Shown here: piece after piece, positions 9,694-46,610 of the stretch | How the letters are laid out: every line of letters begins with the position of its first letter | Numbering within the stretch: position 1 is the first letter of the stretch | Assembly: GCA_902785935.1 (NCBI GenBank) | Contig: CADAAN010000003.1 | Span: forward strand, 33,035-97,034 | DNA length: 64,000 nt | Reading direction: 5' to 3' | Source of the DNA: an uncultured Pseudomonadota bacterium | GTDB taxonomy: Bacteria; Pseudomonadota; Alphaproteobacteria; RF32; CAG-239 | Made by a program: the position numbers and the translations under genes | The notes under the pieces: model-generated | Seen by the model: the letters and a program-made list of their open reading frames with translations, nothing else | Databases searched by the model: none | What the model was told of the DNA's origin: nothing

Positions 9694-9796
9694 ATATGCT
9701 TCTCCTTATAAAAATAAAAATGTTTCCTTTTTCAAGCATTTTTGATATATGCCTTGAATTTTGATTTTCAAGATAAGCACTTTAAAACAAAAGAAA

Positions 9797-9826
9797 CGGC
9801 ACCCGAGGGCGCCGTTTTTTTTATTG
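9797..9826. terminator. Bidirectional hairpin terminator (aacggcacccgagggcgccgtt) between the DUF378 gene and the large lipoprotein gene
   Basis: Inverted repeat with flanking A and T runs. Confidence 0.5.
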
Positions 9827-9896
9827 AAAAAATAACATGTTTCTTAGAGTGATAATCATAACGAAAACAATCAAACATTATGATTTGAACGCTCGA

Positions 9897-12800
9897 CTAT
9901 TTAAAGCGCTTGACAAGCTTGTTGTTGAAGTAGATGGTGCAAATGCCATCTTTGACTTCAATCTTGTATCCATTGACCTTGGAATTCTGTTCCGATTTGG
10001 ACCAGCCCCAAGTGTTCATGGATTTCTCCGTCAGGGAACGAACATTAGTACCATTGTCCTTATAAAGAACCTGGTTGCTCTTATCCTCAACGGTAGCAAG
10101 CTGCCAATTACCGCTCTTGTCGGTGTCATAGCCTGCGACGTAGTCAGCGTCGTAGTAGCTACGCTCGACATAGTTGGCGTTCTTGATGGCGTCGTCGCTC
10201 GGAAGGGCGACATTGTCATTGGCACCGGCAAAGGGGATATAAGCACCCTTATGCTCTTTGGTGACAACGGCAAGACCCTTGATCTTATCAAGGTGACCAT
10301 CTTTGTTGATGTACTTGGAACCATTCCAAGCAGCAGCAACGGCACGGACATCAACGGACAAGATCGTGCCCGGGACGATATCCTCCACCTCAACCTCGAC
10401 CAGAATCTGGCGCTTCACAGCGTCAGAAAGGTTGGCAATAACAGTACCATCAATAGAATATACGCCGTAGAAGTTCTCCTGATAATTGGAGGCTTCATAA
10501 GCGATACCGTTGACGGTCTTGTTACCGGCGGCCACAATGGCATCGGTGCTGTTAGACATAACCATCTGACCATTGAAGGTATGGGTATAATCCCCATCCT
10601 TATAGGTGATGGTCTGATCAAAACCAAAGTCAGCGACATTCGTCTCAGACTTGGCACCATTGCTCATGGTGCTGGTGATTTGACCTTTTTTATTGCTAAC
10701 AGTCCAGTAGCTGTTCGAGCTGCTGGAAGTGCTGCCGTTACGCTCACCGTTGTAGACGGTAGCAAACAGATTATTTGCAGCATACACATCGGTGCCTGCC
10801 TGAGCCGTCAGGAAATAGGCGGGGGTGAAGGGGTCCCTACGAACCTGAACCTTCACATCGTCGGTCACGTCATAGACGTACACAACGGCCTGCCCATTTT
10901 CTACCTTAGGCTCATGCGTGCGCACGGTCTCCGGGGTATAGGTACCAACCATGTTGCCCTCGATGGTGTAGGTGGTCGGGTTGCCAACGGCGGCCTTGGT
11001 CTGCACGCCATCGTCGGTGGAGAGGGTCACCTCGACCTGAGGGGTCAGGGTGACGTTGTTACCGGCAACGGCAGAAGCAACCATATCGACAGCCTTTACT
11101 GCATCGACGGAAGTCGTTGCAAGCGTTACGCCATCAATGCTGACCACTTCGTCCTTCTCTTCAAGACGCAGATATGCGGGTTTGCCTGCAACGTAACCGC
11201 GGAAGTTACGAGCTGTGACCTCATAGGTCTTGCCGTTTTCCTCGACGGTTTTTTTCGGCTCGTTGGCGGTTTCGCCAAAAGATGCCCAGGTGAAGTTGGC
11301 GTTCAGGCCTTCCTTGGTTGCCACGCCAAAGGTGGGCGTCACGGTCAGGGTGGCCGTGATGATCTTTTCCTGAGTATAAGTCTGCTCGGAACCGGCTTTT
11401 TTGACGCCGTTCACGTATTCAGCCTTTTTCACAGTATTCAGACCAGTGCCAACCAGGGTATTCCCGTTCACGTTTGCCGTGAAGGAATAGTCCTTGCTCT
11501 CAACCTTCGTCTCCACGGTGTCGTCGTGCTTGACGAGCACGTCGTAAGCCGTGGAGGCATCCTTCGTCACCTTCTTACCTTCACAGGCAAGAGTGGCGCG
11601 CGTGCTGTTCTTGTAAGCATACGCGTCATAGGTGACATTATTGACGCTCTTGGTGCCATGGGCGGTGGCGGCGACTTTGCCTTCCAGCTCCTCAAAGGAG
11701 ATGCTACACTTGACAGTTACGCTTGCACCATTGTAAGAAAGAGTGGTCTCCTTCTTATTCAGGGTCCAATCGTAAATGTTCTGGGTGCTTTCCTTCTTGT
11801 TGGAGAGGGTGTTCCGATAAGTATTGCCGGAAACACCATTGCTGGTGGTGGCAAAATCGGAAGCACTTGAGGCAATCAGGTCGCTGTGCTCGCGGCCGGC
11901 ATAGCTGTACACAAACTCGTCGTCCAAGGTCTTGGCCAAATACTCCGGCTTAAGGTTGGATTTCATGTAGAAGTCCACCTTTACATCAAAACCATTTTCC
12001 TTAGCGGTAATGGTCTTGACCTGGCGGGTATTCTCGAACACTTCCTCGACCTTTACCCGAATCTCACGACTAGAGGTGGCGGAAAGGTTGATGCTGGCGG
12101 TTTCATTTTTCCAAGTAGCGGTGTATACGGGAGCAATGCTTGCAACGTAGTCGCTCACATTGTAGTATACGCCGTTAATGGTCTGAAGACCTTTTGCAGT
12201 GATGTTCTGCTGAACACCATCGCAAACCAGCTTGCAGATAACAGTTTCGGTGCAATCCTTGTAGCTGTAGGTGATGCTTTCATCACCATACAGGCTAAAG
12301 GTGCTCACGAAGCCTTCGCCCTCATGTCCATTACTGGCAGAGGCATTGAAAGTCATGTTACCTGTTCCTTCAACCTTGGTGCCGGTGGTCTTGTAACCAT
12401 CGGTGGAAGCCAGTACATAGCCATAATTCTGACCCTGTGCAGTAGCCGTTCTTACGAAAGGCTTGCGATCCACTTCGATGATGCCGGAGAGGCTCCATTC
12501 CTCGCGGGTGACAAAAGCTCCCTTGATGGTCTGGTTTTCCTCAGACAGCTCAACCACCATCCAACGACGAATGAATTTGTCCTCAGGATCCGGGGCAACA
12601 AAGAACTTGAGGCTCAGGGTGTCCCTCACCTCAAACTTCTTGCTGGCCTGAGCCTCTTTGCCGGCCTTTACAAAATCGTTAACCACATTTGCCACCAGAG
12701 TATGGATGGCGATGTAGTTGTTGGTTTTGTAGTAACCGCCGTTGTCGGCGGCTACATTGGCCTTCACCAGCGTGTCTTTCACGCTGTGGCTCCAAGCAAC

Positions 12801-13346
12801 ATCCGGGAAGTCCTTTGCCAGGGAATCCTTGGCAAAGTGGGCGTCAGAAGAGCTGTAGGTCAGCTCAAAGTCAGCACCATATTTCCCATTCGAAAGCTTG
12901 GAAGCAAGAGCGCGGACACTCTGCGTTCCATACCAGTCACCGGAGTTCCAGGTGTTGGAAGCTTCCTTAACCTCGCTCTCGGCGTACTTGACACCGTCGA
13001 GCTCGGCCTCAGAAGAAACTTCCTTCTCCACTTTGGCACCACCCTTGACCTCGATGGGTCTGGTCATGGAAGAACCGTACAGGTCTTTTTCACCCGCGGT
13101 CTTCCATGTGTTAGTGGACTTGTACTCGTAGTTCACTACGAGGTCAATCCACTCCCATCCGTAGTGGTTTGTCTTTAGCAGGGTGTCGGTCTGGGGCTTC
13201 GGCTGTTCCGGAGCCTTACCAGGAACATAGCCATAAGCAGAGGTGTTATCCCCTGCCTCAGTCTTAGTCTCCAATTCCATTTTGTTGCAAGCAACCATCG
13301 CGGCCATCATCCCGATAGCGGCGATCACTTTAAAACTTTTTTTCAT
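9897..13346 (-). CDS. Large (1149 aa) predicted surface lipoprotein or adhesin-like protein. Thr/Val/Gly/Asn/Tyr-rich and beta-rich. Compositionally atypical (G+C-rich) relative to the surrounding genome.
   Basis: MKKSFKVIAAIGMMAAMVAC is a signal peptide with a lipobox-like Cys. It is a single uninterrupted ORF. The long antisense ORFs in the six-frame track are artefacts of the high G+C. Confidence 0.7.
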   Translation of the reverse strand: MKKSFKVIAAIGMMAAMVACNKMELETKTEAGDNTSAYGYVPGKAPEQPKPQTDTLLKTNHYGWEWIDLVVNYEYKSTNTWKTAGEKDLYGSSMTRPIEVKGGAKVEKEVSSEAELDGVKYAESEVKEASNTWNSGDWYGTQSVRALASKLSNGKYGADFELTYSSSDAHFAKDSLAKDFPDVAWSHSVKDTLVKANVAADNGGYYKTNNYIAIHTLVANVVNDFVKAGKEAQASKKFEVRDTLSLKFFVAPDPEDKFIRRWMVVELSEENQTIKGAFVTREEWSLSGIIEVDRKPFVRTATAQGQNYGYVLASTDGYKTTGTKVEGTGNMTFNASASNGHEGEGFVSTFSLYGDESITYSYKDCTETVICKLVCDGVQQNITAKGLQTINGVYYNVSDYVASIAPVYTATWKNETASINLSATSSREIRVKVEEVFENTRQVKTITAKENGFDVKVDFYMKSNLKPEYLAKTLDDEFVYSYAGREHSDLIASSASDFATTSNGVSGNTYRNTLSNKKESTQNIYDWTLNKKETTLSYNGASVTVKCSISFEELEGKVAATAHGTKSVNNVTYDAYAYKNSTRATLACEGKKVTKDASTAYDVLVKHDDTVETKVESKDYSFTANVNGNTLVGTGLNTVKKAEYVNGVKKAGSEQTYTQEKIITATLTVTPTFGVATKEGLNANFTWASFGETANEPKKTVEENGKTYEVTARNFRGYVAGKPAYLRLEEKDEVVSIDGVTLATTSVDAVKAVDMVASAVAGNNVTLTPQVEVTLSTDDGVQTKAAVGNPTTYTIEGNMVGTYTPETVRTHEPKVENGQAVVYVYDVTDDVKVQVRRDPFTPAYFLTAQAGTDVYAANNLFATVYNGERNGSTSSSSNSYWTVSNKKGQITSTMSNGAKSETNVADFGFDQTITYKDGDYTHTFNGQMVMSNSTDAIVAAGNKTVNGIAYEASNYQENFYGVYSIDGTVIANLSDAVKRQILVEVEVEDIVPGTILSVDVRAVAAAWNGSKYINKDGHLDKIKGLAVVTKEHKGAYIPFAGANDNVALPSDDAIKNANYVERSYYDADYVAGYDTDKSGNWQLATVEDKSNQVLYKDNGTNVRSLTEKSMNTWGWSKSEQNSKVNGYKIEVKDGICTIYFNNKLVKRFK

Positions 13347-13687
13347 AACGCGTTATTGTTTTTGTTTTACTTACTTATTATGACATCCAAACACAACCAT
13401 AGGGGCGCTTGGATGGAAAAGTCACATTATGATTAGGCACACCTTAAGAAACATGAAAAATTTTTCCATCTTTTTCATTTAATTCACATAAGCTTAGACC
13501 TAATCTCTATAATTCAGTCTTTAACATAGCACAATTTGAATCAAAAAACAAGCAAAAAAATGCACTTTTTTGATTTTTTTGTTTATTTTTTGTACAAAAT
13601 ACCGAAAATAAGTTCTAATGCACTGAAAATACGTATTTTTTTAGAAAATCCGTCCTATTATTTCAGCATCCGGCAAAAACGCTGATT

Positions 13688-16018: not shown

Positions 16019-16095
16019 TGGCGTATCCGGCGAGGCTCGAACTCGCAACCTTCGGCGTCGGAGGCCGACACTCTATCCAATTGAGCTACGGATAC
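16019..16095 (-). tRNA. tRNA-Arg (anticodon CCG), 77 nt, genome-encoded CCA
   Basis: Manual fold of GTATCCG/CGGATAC acceptor stem, anticodon stem TCGGC/GCCGA with loop CTCCGAC, T-arm GCGAG-TTCGAGC-CTCGC, 3' GCCA. Followed by a hairpin plus T-run terminator. Confidence 0.8.
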
Positions 16096-19214: not shown

Positions 19215-20007
19215 ATGAGAAAAAGTCAATTTATATTTGTATTAATGCTTAGCACAGCTTTAGGTTTAGCAAATGTTTATGCCGGCGGTTCGTGCGCACC
19301 TGATGGTGACACAACAAGCACATGCCATTGGGAAATTGAAAACAGAGTCCTGACAATTTCGGGTTCAGGTGCGATGGTGAATTATAGTTCACCATCTATG
19401 TATCCTTGGTATTCACAAAAAGATTCTTATACATCCGTTGTGGTTGAGGGAGCTAATGAAACAACAGGAACGACAGGTGTTACTTCAATCGCAAAAGTGG
19501 CATTTCGAGGCAACAACCTGACCTCGGTTGTGATTCCCGATTCTGTTACTTCAATCGGACTGGGTGCATTTTATAGCAACAACCTGACCTCGGTTGTGAT
19601 TCCGGATTCTGTTACTTCAATCGGAAGGATGGCATTTTGGGGTTCTCAAGCAACGGATTTAGTCTGCAGTGCCGAAAATTTGCAAAGATATTTGGGTGCA
19701 GCTGGCGCATTTGTAAATTCGGGCGACATTAACCTCTCTTGCACAACAGGCATTTGTAAATTCGGGCGACATTAACCTCTCTTGCACAACAGGTGATTGT
19801 CAAGCCGTTTTGGAAGCTTGGGATACAGCAAAAGGTACAAATTACGCATCGCGCGCAAAAACAATCCTGACAAATCAGGACGGAAGTAAGACAATTTACG
19901 ATTTGAGCGGAAATTTGCTCGGCTATAAAGGCAAGCGCATTTACACCGTTGAAGAGGCCAATCAAGTTGCAGGCAAAGTCAATTCGGTCAAGATAAGGTA
20001 TCGATGA
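19215..20007 (+). pseudogene. BspA-type leucine-rich-repeat secreted protein, disrupted by a frameshifting 43-bp tandem duplication
   Basis: Signal peptide, BspA-like LRRs (VVIPDSVTSIG... twice), a stop after the duplication, and the C-terminal conserved domain (KRIYTVEEANQVAGKVNSVKIRYR) continuing in another frame. Removing one 43-bp copy restores a 249-aa ORF. Confidence 0.65.
19708..19793. repeat. Perfect 43-bp tandem duplication (catttgtaaattcgggcgacattaacctctcttgcacaacagg x2) inside the LRR gene
   Basis: 19708-19750 is identical to 19751-19793. 43 is not a multiple of 3. Confidence 0.85.
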
Positions 20008-32328: not shown

Positions 32329-33834
32329 TTATGATTTAATCATCTTAAAGCAGGTGACCAAAAAAAGGATTAAGCCCATCACGATGGCGATGGCATTTCC
32401 GCCGATATGGGCATAAATTGTTGAAACGCTTAATTTTTGGGGCAAATTAACATCTAAAACGCCTCTTTCGTTAAGGCCTAAAAATGTTTTTATCTGTCCG
32501 AAAGGATTTATCACCGCACTGATGCCGTTGTTTGCCGCGCGTACAATCGTGACGCCTTCTTCTATTGCGCGCATTTTGGCAGCAAGCAAATGCTGATACG
32601 GGCCAAAGCTCTTGCCATACCATCCGTCGTTACTCAAAACAATCAAAAATTGAGGCTTATCACGTCTATTGATGACTTCATCCGGAAAAATGACCTCATA
32701 ACAAATCAATGCACCGAATTTCGGAAGCCCCGTAAGTTCTATCGTTTTATATTTTTCGCCTTGTGCAAAATCAGCCATTTGGTTGGCTATCGGACTGACC
32801 CACGAGGGCAAAAATTTTCGAAACGGAATATATTCACCAAACGGCACCAAATGATTTTTATCATAAAATGCAACCGTTTGCCCCTCATCGTCAATCACGG
32901 ACATAGAATTATAAAGCGCATCATTTTGTTCATCATAGCGCAGCAAGCCCGTCATCAGATAACCGTTTTTCGGAACAGCTTTTTTTATCAACATTTGATA
33001 ATAAGCCGAATCGGCGGGATTAAAAGCTGTCGCCGTTTCGCCCCAAAGGACAAATCGCACATTTTCAGCCCCGTCTTTTCGGCTGAGGTTGATATAATCC
33101 ATCAGATTGTCTTCCAAAGACTCCTGATCCCATTTTAAGGTTTGCGCAATGCTCGGCTGCACAATGCGCACGGCAATATCCGAAGGTTTATCGTCATTTT
33201 TTAAGCGATACATGCCAAATGCCGTCATCAATGCGCTTATCAAAAGAAAAACCGCCACGGCGCTGATATATTTTTTTTGAATACCGGCATAAAGACAAAG
33301 CACCATAATTATCATCAAAAATGACAAGCCGTATGTGCCGACAATGCTTGCGCTTTGAAGCAAAATATCTGAAAAACCGAACATTGTGCCAATCATATTC
33401 CACGCAAATCCGGTCAGCAAAAAACATCGCACATATTCCATCAAAACAATGATGCTTGCAAAGCTCAAAATTTTGCACCATGGGGTTGTATTTTTTAAAA
33501 AATGCCATACCATAAAAGGCAAAATCAAAAACAGCGCAAAAAATGCCCCCGGCGCCACAAGCGCAAACGGATAAAGCCAGCCGAATGTCACAAAATCAAC
33601 AAGCAAGGCGTTGGCAATCCAATAAAATCCGCCGCAAAAAAATCCAAAACCGAAGACATAACCGATTTTGGCCGCCTGTTTTAAATCTTGAGCCTCGTCA
33701 CAAATCAAAAGCGCAAACAACAAGAAAAGTGCGAAAACAGGCACGGCATATACGGGCGCAAATCCGAAAGACGCCAAAATTCCCGCGATAAAAAGTGCTG
33801 TTTTTTGATGTTTGATTTTGCTTAATTGAAGCAT
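32329..33834 (-). CDS. lnt: Apolipoprotein N-acyltransferase
   Basis: Multi-TM N-terminus plus a CN-hydrolase domain (WGETA...LICYEVIFP). Confidence 0.85.
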   Translation of the reverse strand: MLQLSKIKHQKTALFIAGILASFGFAPVYAVPVFALFLLFALLICDEAQDLKQAAKIGYVFGFGFFCGGFYWIANALLVDFVTFGWLYPFALVAPGAFFALFLILPFMVWHFLKNTTPWCKILSFASIIVLMEYVRCFLLTGFAWNMIGTMFGFSDILLQSASIVGTYGLSFLMIIMVLCLYAGIQKKYISAVAVFLLISALMTAFGMYRLKNDDKPSDIAVRIVQPSIAQTLKWDQESLEDNLMDYINLSRKDGAENVRFVLWGETATAFNPADSAYYQMLIKKAVPKNGYLMTGLLRYDEQNDALYNSMSVIDDEGQTVAFYDKNHLVPFGEYIPFRKFLPSWVSPIANQMADFAQGEKYKTIELTGLPKFGALICYEVIFPDEVINRRDKPQFLIVLSNDGWYGKSFGPYQHLLAAKMRAIEEGVTIVRAANNGISAVINPFGQIKTFLGLNERGVLDVNLPQKLSVSTIYAHIGGNAIAIVMGLILFLVTCFKMIKS

Positions 33835-36748: not shown

Positions 36749-37612
36749 TTATCGATATTTTATCTTAAAGGAATTAACCTCACCCGCCACAAAATTTGCC
36801 TCATCGATGGTGTAGATACGCTTTTTGATATAGTTCGGTGTGCCGATGTCATTTGCTTTTGCATACCACCTGCCTTGATAAAACACATTTCCGTCTGCAG
36901 TTTTTTGATAGGTTACGAGCTCAACGTTTTTATCGGTGTCTTGCAAAAAGGAAATTGCTGCCTTGCACTGAGCTTTAAGATTTTCGGCACAATATAATTT
37001 TTTAAGATTAATCACGCTGGAACCACGAAAAGCCTCATTTGAAATATATGTCACATTTTCAGGTATCACCAATTCTTCTGGTGTGAGAGGAAGTGTATCA
37101 GAGCCGATAAGTGTCAAAGATGAGGGAAGAAGAGAAAAATCCGGATTATTTCTGTAAGAAGCTAAAGCAAAATTTTCAAGTGTTGTTAATCCATCCGGAA
37201 TATTGATTTTTTCTAAGTTTCCAATATTTGCAAAAGCTTCTGCTCTGATGACTTTTAAGCTTTTTGGCAAAGAAACTTCCGAGATGGCATACATATCTTC
37301 AAAGGCATGTGCTCCGACAGATGTCATTCCTTCTTCAATAACAACATTATTTACTCTGCCTATTATTTGCGATTGAGCCCACGGCGCGGGGTTTGAGGTT
37401 GGAAGGCCATATAAACCATCATATCTAAAAGTATATGCTTTCATTTCACCTGTGCCGGAGATTGTCAATGTTGAACCTTCAAATGTTGCCGTGCACGAAC
37501 CCGTTGAATTTTCAGGTGTGCAATCCCATACGCATTTTCCTTGTTCATCACAGTCCGCCATTGCAACAATCGGCAACAAAAGAAACCCTGAAGTCAAAGA
37601 TATTTTTTTCAT
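36749..37612 (-). CDS. BspA-type leucine-rich-repeat secreted protein, an intact paralog of 19215-20007 with the same conserved C-terminal domain
   Basis: Signal peptide MKKISLTSGFLLLPIVAMA, a Cys-rich stretch, LRRs, and C-terminal KRIYTIDEANFVAGEVNSFKIKYR. Confidence 0.7.
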   Translation of the reverse strand: MKKISLTSGFLLLPIVAMADCDEQGKCVWDCTPENSTGSCTATFEGSTLTISGTGEMKAYTFRYDGLYGLPTSNPAPWAQSQIIGRVNNVVIEEGMTSVGAHAFEDMYAISEVSLPKSLKVIRAEAFANIGNLEKINIPDGLTTLENFALASYRNNPDFSLLPSSLTLIGSDTLPLTPEELVIPENVTYISNEAFRGSSVINLKKLYCAENLKAQCKAAISFLQDTDKNVELVTYQKTADGNVFYQGRWYAKANDIGTPNYIKKRIYTIDEANFVAGEVNSFKIKYR

Positions 37613-45639: not shown

Positions 45640-45724
45640 AAAAATTCTTGACAAATTTAGTTAATTTGTGTAGACTAAGAATCTCAAAGAAAGTTTTTTG
45701 TATAATCATCATAAAATTATTTAA

Positions 45725-46610
45725 TATGAAGAAGTTGATTCAAAAAGATCAAACGATTTATGCGTTTGAAAACGGCAAGCTGAGAGAACTCGGAAATGCC
45801 GTTAAGATGGAACCCGTCAGTGTCGGTATTTATAATATCGGTCATGACGTGTATCTCTTGGATGGTAACGTGCTTGAGCTTGTTGCCGCACAAGCATTTG
45901 CCTGCAAAATTGTCAGGTATGAACCCGCTAAATCCGAAACCGTGAGGGATTTGAGTTACAAGCTCCTGTGTCATCCCAAAGATTACGGAGAGCCTTCGCA
46001 AAAGCTGCTTGATGCTTATCAAGAGCTTATCAGCCGAAAAGATGAAGGTTGCACACTGCCTGATGAGGCTGTTTGCATTTTGAGCGGCGCCATGCACGGC
46101 GGTGACATCACAAACCTTTACATCGCCAAGGGTGAGCATAAAGGCTTTGTAAGCAAAAGTGAGCTTATCGAGGTCGGTTTGCCCTCCGAGCGTGCTTTTA
46201 TCTACAAAGGTATGGTCTATGCCCCTGACGGATACCTTAACTTCAGGCGCTGTGCCCTTGAGCCTTTGCTTAAAGCAAAGAGCTATATGATTTTCTGGGC
46301 AGGTCGCCATAACACACTCCTTTTTGCCTTAGTGCAAAAAGACACAAAGGCGGAACTTGTGCGCTTAGGCCCCGTTATTGAAACGGTGGTCACAAGTGTC
46401 GGCAACCTGATTGTGACGGAAGACGATGATGACAGATACGCCATTTATCGCTTGGGTGAAAGGCTTGAAAAAGTCATATCATTTGAGGGATTCGGCGGCA
46501 ATTGGGACATTGATGCTTCAACGGGCGATGTTTACGTTATGGTCGGCCCGCGCGTCAAGCAAAGGTATGTCTTCAGCAGAGGTCGATACACCTTGTCGGA
46601 TACTGACTAG
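45725..46610 (+). CDS. Hypothetical protein (295 aa), slightly G+C-richer than its neighbours
   Basis: ORF with a TTGACA-17-TAGACT promoter at 45647-45675 and a hairpin terminator at 46622-46648. Confidence 0.45.

Follow-up and report, generated by a model that had tools for sequence, protein, structure and literature searches.

A single gene of strongly G+C-rich composition, lying within AT-rich DNA of an uncultured rumen alphaproteobacterium, raises the question of whether it was acquired from elsewhere or is native to the lineage that carries it. The DNA is a 64-kb window (the 64,000 nucleotides analyzed here, and referred to as the window throughout) of STEW19-1 scaffold_366 in ENA, a 107-kb scaffold from a metagenome assembly; the gene is an open reading frame (ORF) at 9897–13346 on the minus strand that encodes a lipoprotein precursor of 1149 amino acids, and the exact protein is on record (P0001). 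A first-pass annotation of the window had regarded the gene as a probable horizontal acquisition with a host-type promoter. We find that its composition is indeed exceptional but that acquisition is not supported, and we consider it rather probable that this is a native, lineage-restricted, very highly expressed and recombining major lipoprotein gene of an anaerobic rumen alphaproteobacterium, with a codon set that selection maintains.

Several aspects of the composition are informative. First, the gene has a G+C content of 0.513 and a G+C content at third codon positions (GC3) of 0.632, with ordinary values at first (0.504) and second (0.403) positions, such that the G+C excess sits almost entirely at third codon positions. 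The 66 other genes on the scaffold have a mean GC3 of 0.384 (standard deviation 0.058, maximum 0.511), which places this gene at z = 4.26 and outside the host distribution; GC3 of the other ORFs in the window ranges from 0.225 to 0.54, and a codon-usage likeness score likewise sets the gene far outside all 47 of them. Secondly, the boundaries are sharp. In a 1-kb profile the window averages about 0.40 G+C and rises to 0.51–0.53 between 10 and 13 kb, with the switch occurring at the start and stop codons (0.25–0.37 upstream, 0.45–0.55 within, and 0.36–0.24 downstream), so that the immediate flanks, at 0.24–0.37, are AT-rich just as the first-pass annotation had described. Thirdly, GC skew across the same 10–13 kb is close to zero (−0.025 to +0.011). 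We note that the second-highest GC3 in the window (0.54) belongs to a 197-amino acid ORF at 45717–46310 on the minus strand without any family match; its translation suggests an artefact of non-coding or antisense sequence, and it should not be taken for a second compositional outlier.

The codons that produce this excess follow a pattern of their own. Third-position A falls to 9% from a background of 26%, and C rises to 39% from 19%, but the codons GCG (0.20 to 0.03), TCG (0.19 to 0.03) and ACG (0.34 to 0.15) are depleted. The preferred set comprises ACC, CAG, AAG, GAG, CTG, ATC, AGC/TCC, GCC/GCT, GGT/GGC and CGT/CGC, with CAG reaching 0.96, AAG 0.70, ACC 0.62, and CTG 0.46 (from 0.07). In the alanine, threonine, glycine, serine and arginine families C is used far more than G, with the opposite being true of leucine, where CTG greatly exceeds CTC. 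The dominance of GGC, GCC, GTC, ACC and GAC that had been claimed is thus correct insofar as the usage is truly atypical, but misses that GGT, GCT, GTT and CGT are still frequent and that GCG and TCG are avoided. The set resembles what we take to be the classical optimal-codon set of Proteobacteria, and the preferences for AAG, GAG, CAG, CTG, ACC and ATC also resemble what we presume to be the usage of Prevotella. The avoidance of A-ending codons further accounts for two long antisense ORFs, of 677 amino acids (9837–11870, plus strand) and 430 amino acids (11886–13178, plus strand), that had been noted previously as phantoms: the only codons that can place stops in the codon-aligned antisense frame are TTA, CTA and TCA, which occur 0, 1 and 1 times in the gene. 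We therefore reject the antisense ORFs as genes and regard them as a by-product of the scarcity of these codons.

The distribution of relatives bears directly on the origin of the gene. There are six close relatives among 5.8 billion clusters, and a word-indexed search with a 16-sequence profile recovered close relatives only. A profile search of 1.84 billion representative proteins yielded 52 matches at E ≤ 1e-3, nearly all of which are lipoprotein-like, 600–1300 amino acids long and without a Pfam domain, and in which repeated beta modules and a shared C-terminal domain are common; when one distant member served as the query, more than 75 clusters were found for its subfamily alone. All 12 of the distinct readable genomic contexts (drawn from the window, L008 and L015–L023, with L021 and L022 counted as one) are AT-rich genomes. 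The source of one family member is labelled 'Alphaproteobacteria bacterium' at NCBI, and the gene orders nuoN-birA-RNase J and hfq-hflX in related loci, on contigs L018, L021/L022 and L023, are ones that we take to be of alphaproteobacterial type. The hosts of L019 and L020 are demonstrably close relatives of the window organism, with neighboring genes 62–87% identical to the window FtsK, FabD, FabG, YidC and EngB. The window scaffold itself encodes YidC with a periplasmic domain adjoining EngB, miaB-phoH-ybeY-lnt, YfgM-BamB-Der, DksA, SspB and HydABC, which indicate a diderm anaerobe of proteobacterial type. The family is thus one of uncharacterized, large and variable lipoproteins of gut and rumen Alphaproteobacteria.

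The chromosomal positions of the family genes are in part conserved. The subfamily represented by P0026 occupies the same site in L018, L021 and L023, in the order nuoN-birA-rnj-ldcA-[gene]-hydrogenase-murF-nrdR-nusB-def-hfq-hflX. The subfamily of the window gene is found at differing sites, adjoining DnaB and DUF378 in the window, where a SLOG-like protein and FtsK are also neighbors, and adjoining SecY and an outer-membrane protein (OMP)-like gene in L008; the distant relatives in L019 and L020 adjoin EngB and FabG, which belong to the neighborhood of the window gene but lie at other positions. Neither integrase nor transposase genes are present beside the window gene or at the sites of the homologs that were read, direct repeats flanking the window gene do not exceed chance, and the nearest tRNA gene (16022–16095) is 2.7 kb away, beyond DnaB.

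The first-pass explanation would have the ORF arrive from a genome of about 50% G+C, such as that of a rumen member of the Bacteroidales, keeping donor codons behind a promoter of host type. There are reasons for entertaining it: the gene is an extreme compositional outlier with Prevotella-like codon preferences, its relatives occupy different chromosomal sites (the window, L008, L019 and L020), ribosomal-protein genes do not share its codon set, and it has no Shine-Dalgarno sequence, which is true of every family member read, although 22 of the 38 window genes possess one, including those for the aldolase and HydABC. Set against these, no homolog outside the lineage was found among the 1.84 billion representatives or the 5.8 billion clusters, and in particular none from Bacteroidetes or a G+C-rich donor among the former. 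Because the homologs with a readable context all lie in AT-rich relatives, one subfamily has a site conserved across species, and mobility genes are absent, horizontal acquisition is unsupported, and with homologs occurring throughout the same lineage we consider such an event distinctly unlikely. Moreover, the AT-rich untranslated regions (UTRs) travel with the ORF, being conserved together with it across species whose neighboring genes differ. The related impression of a Bacteroidetes-style surface protein is understandable, since the gene has an A-rich leader and no Shine-Dalgarno sequence and some relatives have S-C-[DE] lipoboxes, but these are traits of a family that resides within the Alphaproteobacteria. 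We note separately that a glycosyltransferase/epimerase cluster with unusually low GC3 (0.22–0.36) occupies 155–1126 of the window and the scaffold beyond its start (L013 2984–10004). This cluster, an outlier in the opposite direction, has the appearance of a locus for surface polysaccharide, and strain-to-strain exchange is arguably more plausible for it than for the lipoprotein gene.

The comparison within the family also suggests that the codon set is maintained. Homologs in L008, L015, L016 and L019 have GC3 values of 0.60–0.66, compared to 0.25–0.48 for their neighbors (0.25–0.41 for host genes in L015), and almost the same set is found in relatives whose proteins are only 20–30% identical, although the bias of their hosts is the opposite. 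The window gene and that of L008 are saturated for synonymous substitutions (dS of 1.7), yet GC3 is equal, which argues that the codon set is an equilibrium that is actively maintained, rather than the fading signature of a donor. The avoidance of GCG, TCG and A-ending codons is predicted by neither a G+C-rich donor nor GC-biased gene conversion.

Gene conversion nonetheless deserves consideration, since the alleles are clearly mosaic. Among six alleles, which are from different samples and not from one clone, identity to the window protein changes block by block along the alignment from 29% to 98%; the L009 allele, for example, is 98% identical at alignment columns 180–420 but 46–63% identical over most of the second half. 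These jumps indicate recombination among diverged alleles, and the ratio of nonsynonymous to synonymous substitution rates (dN/dS) is about 0.3. If segmental recombination among alleles or silent copies were biased towards G/C, in the manner of the Borrelia vls system, third positions could be driven upwards, and it is in the subfamilies with the highest GC3 that the mosaicism is seen; the vls lipoprotein locus is itself 47% G+C in a genome of 24–29% (PMC5995427). The codon-family-specific pattern argues against this, with GCG, TCG and ACG depleted and C and G favored in different families. Conversion tracts should also spill into the conserved UTRs, but the excess is confined to the ORF, from start codon to stop codon; there is next to no GC skew over the gene, the non-homologous OMP-like neighbors in related loci have raised GC3 as well, and tblastn with the family proteins found no silent cassette or paralog in the 64-kb window or the flanking parts of the scaffold. 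We therefore regard biased conversion as an unlikely source of the composition, with selection on codons in a native gene being the better explanation.

Where selection acts is suggested by the small genes that accompany some homologs. A protein of 230–290 amino acids with a signal peptide is encoded directly downstream of the lipoprotein gene in L015 (13619–14482), L020 (10685–11437) and L023 (12492–13184), with L008 7241–8161 available for comparison; those of L015 and L020 are mutually homologous (E 5e-8), and that of L023 appears similar by eye. From their sequences we would guess that they are beta-barrel OMPs, and they may serve as a partner or anchor of the lipoprotein, although no such gene adjoins the window gene. 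Their GC3 is 0.58 in L015 and 0.57 in L020. Selection thus seems to act on the lipoprotein gene and more weakly on these OMP-like partners in L015 and L020, but apparently not on the genome at large.

Several observations weigh against a native gene under codon selection. First, a search of the scaffold for highly expressed reference genes recovered only those for ribosomal proteins L25 and L28, class II aldolase, HydABC and one beta-barrel OMP, none of which has the codon set; their GC3 values are 0.32–0.47, so that no genome-wide gradient of translational selection is visible in about 85 kb, and selection would have to act almost exclusively on the one gene. Secondly, the syntenic P0026 subfamily shows little or no excess (0.47 compared to 0.39–0.45 for neighbors in L021, and 0.51 compared to 0.44–0.53 in L023), so that not all of the family has the trait. 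Thirdly, Prevotella-like codons behind an A-rich leader that lacks a Shine-Dalgarno sequence would also fit an old Bacteroidetes origin, and an ancient transfer into the alphaproteobacterial family is conceivable. Fourthly, it is contig boundaries that point to high expression, as described below. Lastly, in the UTR pairing also described below, antisense duplex energies are as good as those of the sense strand in some loci, a comparison that does not separate pairing in RNA from pairing in DNA, and the covariation comes from about five independent lineages.

The organization of the locus suggests a strongly transcribed, self-contained unit, all elements of which are on the minus strand. Alignment of upstream regions reveals a putative sigma-70 promoter at 13523–13552, with a −35 hexamer CTTGTT (13552–13547), a 17-nt spacer and an extended −10 element TGTGCTATGTT (13533–13523), from which transcription is predicted to start near 13516. 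CTTG and TG-n-TA-nnn-T are invariant in seven aligned upstream regions, one of which is from an unrelated neighboring gene (the OMP-like gene of L015). In a generic promoter scan the window promoter falls below threshold, and we infer the assignment from the alignment. A Bacteroidetes-type promoter was considered and rejected, the conserved −35 CTTG and TG-n-TAnnnT being of sigma-70 type, and the claim that the promoter is host-like is supported. Upstream of the −35 is an A/T-rich tract (TTTTGTACAAAAAATAAAC..., 13553–13599) that is conserved with L008 and L017 and is a candidate UP-like element. At the other end, an intrinsic terminator, AAACGGCGCCCTCGGGTGCCGTTT followed by a T-run, is located at 9784–9817, and the same type of hairpin follows the homologs.

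A set of single-gene contigs is bounded by these predicted ends. Six contigs from six samples (L003–L007 and L009) contain this gene only, and are 3570–3721 nt long for alleles of 1139–1159 amino acids, which fits a predicted mRNA of about 3.7 kb. Five of them, which reach the 5′UTR core, begin some 15–55 nt downstream of where transcription is predicted to start, and the sixth (L007) is more truncated, beginning about 40 nt before the start codon; none of the six extends beyond the ascending arm of the terminator stem. Two JGI assemblies of one allele have ends within 13 and 17 nt of each other. The six look like assembled transcripts, which would be a sign of high expression. A Logan contig from ERR3275101 (L002), a run used in a rumen-virome study, instead runs on into DnaB and DUF378. 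Because the window comes from a metagenome scaffold, a foreign fragment could in principle have been joined to alphaproteobacterial DNA during assembly or binning, but the recovery of the DnaB-gene-DUF378 order in this independent assembly, together with the similar settings of homologs on many independent contigs, the longest of 282 kb, makes such an artefact almost vanishingly improbable.

The UTRs of the predicted transcript are complementary to each other. A repeat finder identifies two nested inverted repeats directly outside the ORF, one formed by 13343–13373 with 9853–9883 and the other by 13440–13464 with 9827–9851. The inner repeat (I1) joins the A-rich translation initiation region at 13341–13373 to the 3′UTR segment just after the stop codon (9853–9885), for which the alternatives are a local hairpin (loop TTTGATTGTTTT) and, as the predicted co-fold has it, pairing with the upstream copy TAATCATAATG in the 5′UTR. 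The outer repeat is predicted to form a long-range helix, of which the 5′ arm is a family-specific motif at 13436–13484 with the core TTTTTCATGTTTCTTAAGG (13442–13460), and the 3′ arm is the complementary core CTCTAAGAAACATGTTATTTTTTC at 9826–9849; the core, TTTTTCATGTTTCTTA on the 5′ side and TAAGAAACATG on the 3′ side, is conserved and specific to the family. The 5′UTR motif does not occur elsewhere in the window, and in the fetched loci it is found only upstream of family genes. We note that a conserved ATG in the core opens a mini-ORF, MFLKVCLIIM* (13422–13454, minus strand), which reads MFLLVCL* in L003 and L008. L015 and L020 have not retained it, and the conserved motif may simply have produced it by chance.

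RNAduplex comparison of the 5′ and 3′ flanks gives z values of −4 to −9 against shuffled sequences in seven of nine loci (the window, L009, L006, L003, L008, L015 and L016), with no significant duplex in L018 or L020, and the duplex energy of the window gene (−47.5) is the most extreme of 47 window genes (mean −25.4, standard deviation 6.1). Co-folding gains 9–26 kcal/mol over separate folding with 22–51 intermolecular pairs, and in L015 and L016 nearly all of the 5′UTR between core motif and start codon is predicted to pair with the 3′UTR. The inner arms vary between clades but are still complementary, with cognate arms mostly outperforming non-cognate ones. The outer helix, from five distinct sequences, is 86% paired, compared to 37–55% when the arms are slid, with compensatory changes at two of 17 pairs; 11–13 of 500 shuffles reach the observed score. 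By analogy with the icaR and hbs mRNAs described below, we consider that the paired UTRs probably form an mRNA panhandle that protects or regulates a long and heavily used message. A sub-threshold Rfam match to STnc50 covers the 3′UTR and terminator (9783–9866, minus strand; 31 bits compared to a gathering score of 55, E 0.017); it is probably terminator-driven, although a 3′UTR-derived small RNA is conceivable.

Inverted repeats that bracket a gene could alternatively be DNA recombination sites that switch it on and off by inversion, in which case the open antisense frame would be relevant too. The repeats, imperfect and 25–31 nt long with the conserved core CATGTTTCT, are suitably placed directly outside the ORF and downstream of the promoter, antisense duplex energies match the sense ones in some loci, and several homologs have almost no stops, or none at all, in the antisense frame (none in L007 and one in L008). 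Yet the orientation relative to the promoter and 5′UTR is the same in all 14 fetched loci that include a 5′ flank, with no inverted variant among them, and there is no recombinase gene nearby. The complementarity also far exceeds the core site and appears to co-vary, neither of which a recombinase site would require. The general scarcity of A-ending codons accounts for the open antisense frame, which distant members such as L018 and L020, with 13 TCA codons each, do not maintain. We consider an invertible cassette to be very improbable.

The product has the hallmarks of a lipoprotein. The precursor begins with MKKSFKVIAAIGMMAAMVAC|NK, consisting of a charged n-region, a hydrophobic core and a lipobox-type cysteine at residue 20; the signal peptide and lipobox (MKKSFKVIAAIGMMAAMVA-C20, 13287–13346, minus strand) were read by eye against a PROSITE-type rule, and the cysteine is kept in an equivalent context in all homologs, both close and distant. 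The maturation enzymes are encoded on the same scaffold, with Lnt (PF20154/PF00795) at 32329–33834 of the window and Lgt (PF01790) also present, and the invariant cysteine together with these host functions supports the lipoprotein assignment. The protein is rich in threonine, valine, alanine, lysine, serine, glycine and asparagine and is predicted to be all-beta. It has no match in Pfam, NCBIfam or PHROGs, including no likeness to any S-layer family in the first two, and ten distant relatives have no Pfam match either. No internal repeats emerged when the window protein was compared with itself by BLASTP, although a duplicated module is present in relatives of the L008 type. The description of a large beta-type lipoprotein precursor without an enzymatic motif therefore stands, and the protein is probably exposed at the cell surface.

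A full-length AlphaFold2 prediction of the window protein, with six sequences, is poor (predicted local distance difference test score, pLDDT, of 31), and only the C-terminal domain could be modelled, with a pLDDT of 93.6. This domain of about 165 residues (approximately 987–1149, encoded at 9900–10388 on the minus strand) is the most widely shared part of the family, with hidden Markov model matches concentrated on profile positions 950–1150. Structure searches with the model gave no significant match in PDB or BFVD, and the domain has no match in IMG/VR contigs. However, it also terminates P0055, which has PHROG matches to tail and tail-fiber proteins, and P0053, which matches Head_fiber_dimeric with 39 bits; the phage origin of these two is judged from their N-terminal domains alone. 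More broadly, P0053, P0055, P0043, P0044 and P0036 carry the domain on short, non-lipoprotein proteins with phage-fiber-like N-termini, among which are a Mtd_N-like motif, a head-fiber dimeric domain and PEGA repeats. The position of the domain at the ends of the fiber-like P0053 and P0055 suggests a binding module, and in the lipoproteins it is probably a binding or anchoring module.

Taken together, we propose that the gene would operate as a self-contained monocistronic unit, in which a strong promoter (an A/T-rich upstream tract, −35 CTTG and an extended −10) would drive a message with a 5′UTR of about 170 nt, an A-rich start region lacking a Shine-Dalgarno sequence, the 3.45-kb ORF, a 3′UTR of about 80 nt and an intrinsic terminator. 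Heavy translation, or properties of the mRNA itself, would hold the preferred codon set by selection, without inheritance from a G+C-rich donor; pairing of the 5′ and 3′UTRs could close the ends of the mRNA, such that the message is protected or regulated; and recombination would reshuffle alleles, as expected of an exposed, variable surface protein. More tentatively, we speculate that these parts could constitute a previously undescribed bacterial expression cassette for a hypervariable major surface lipoprotein, combining a panhandle of co-evolving UTRs that includes the start-codon region, initiation without a Shine-Dalgarno sequence, a private codon set, and a C-terminal domain of new fold that is also found on phage fiber tips.

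If this reading is correct, the protein is the probable dominant surface protein of uncultured gut and rumen Alphaproteobacteria, and a likely target of phage and host interactions. The gene is also a cautionary case: a sharp compositional outlier between AT-rich flanks, the textbook picture of horizontal transfer, is here most likely native, and composition-based island finders would misfile it. Other aspects are of wider interest, including a codon set private to one gene in a genome with otherwise little sign of codon selection, an apparently co-varying pairing of bacterial mRNA ends across a whole family, for which known examples are few and concern single genes, and a confidently modelled protein domain without a solved structural relative. 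The sharing of a new-fold domain with phage fiber tips would, if true, point to a common ligand, for instance the surface glycan of the cell itself.

Two further features of the window are noted. Leucine-rich-repeat proteins of the LRR_5 type recur, at 19215–19775 and 36749–37612 in the window and at 164–832 in L008, with 34–38% identity between those of the window and of the related metagenome-assembled genome RUG11221. An ORF of about 1000 amino acids at 50864–53941 on the minus strand, the start of which is uncertain (993 amino acids as called on the scaffold), has no Pfam match, and its product is rich in lysine and glutamate with a hydrophobic central segment and a proline-rich linker.

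The locus shares features with several known systems while departing from each of them. It resembles genomic islands in its atypical composition and sharp boundary change, but the boundaries are at the start and stop codons and not at att sites, there are no mobility genes, and homologs are confined to the host lineage. It is linked to the distal, receptor-binding domains of phage tail and head fibers by the domain of about 165 residues that ends P0055 and P0053, although that domain is without a match in IMG/VR or BFVD. In Borrelia, inverted repeats lie near the vls expression site, and the window gene parallels the vlsE/vls and Vmp systems in having inverted repeats, in segmental mosaic variation, and in being a lipoprotein gene richer in G+C than its AT-rich genome; VlsE is surface-exposed, as the window product probably is. 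The window gene differs from vls in the absence of adjacent silent cassettes in 64 kb, of GC skew and of sequence similarity, and in an excess that is codon-specific and avoids NCG.

The genes for S-layer and other major surface proteins, such as Caulobacter rsaA and Lactobacillus slpA, offer a parallel to the predicted expression unit, with one large secreted structural protein, a strong dedicated promoter, a long 5′UTR, a monocistronic message, a strong terminator, and codon usage far more biased than that of the neighbors; rsaA is the most abundant mRNA in Caulobacter (PMC12828775). The differences are that the window product is a lipoprotein without similarity to S-layer families, rather than a lattice protein secreted by a type I or II system, and that its codon bias is absent from the ribosomal-protein genes seen. 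For the UTRs, base pairing between the 5′ and 3′UTRs has been described for icaR mRNA in S. aureus (PMC3868564) and hbs mRNA in B. subtilis (PMC5737220). As in those cases, complementary UTR segments belong to one mRNA and include the translation initiation region, with a likely effect on translation or on ribonuclease access, and related loci of the window lineage encode RNase J. The pairing predicted here is nevertheless far longer, at 22–51 pairs, would span an ORF of 3.4–4 kb, and appears from sequence comparison to be conserved across a protein family with compensatory change.

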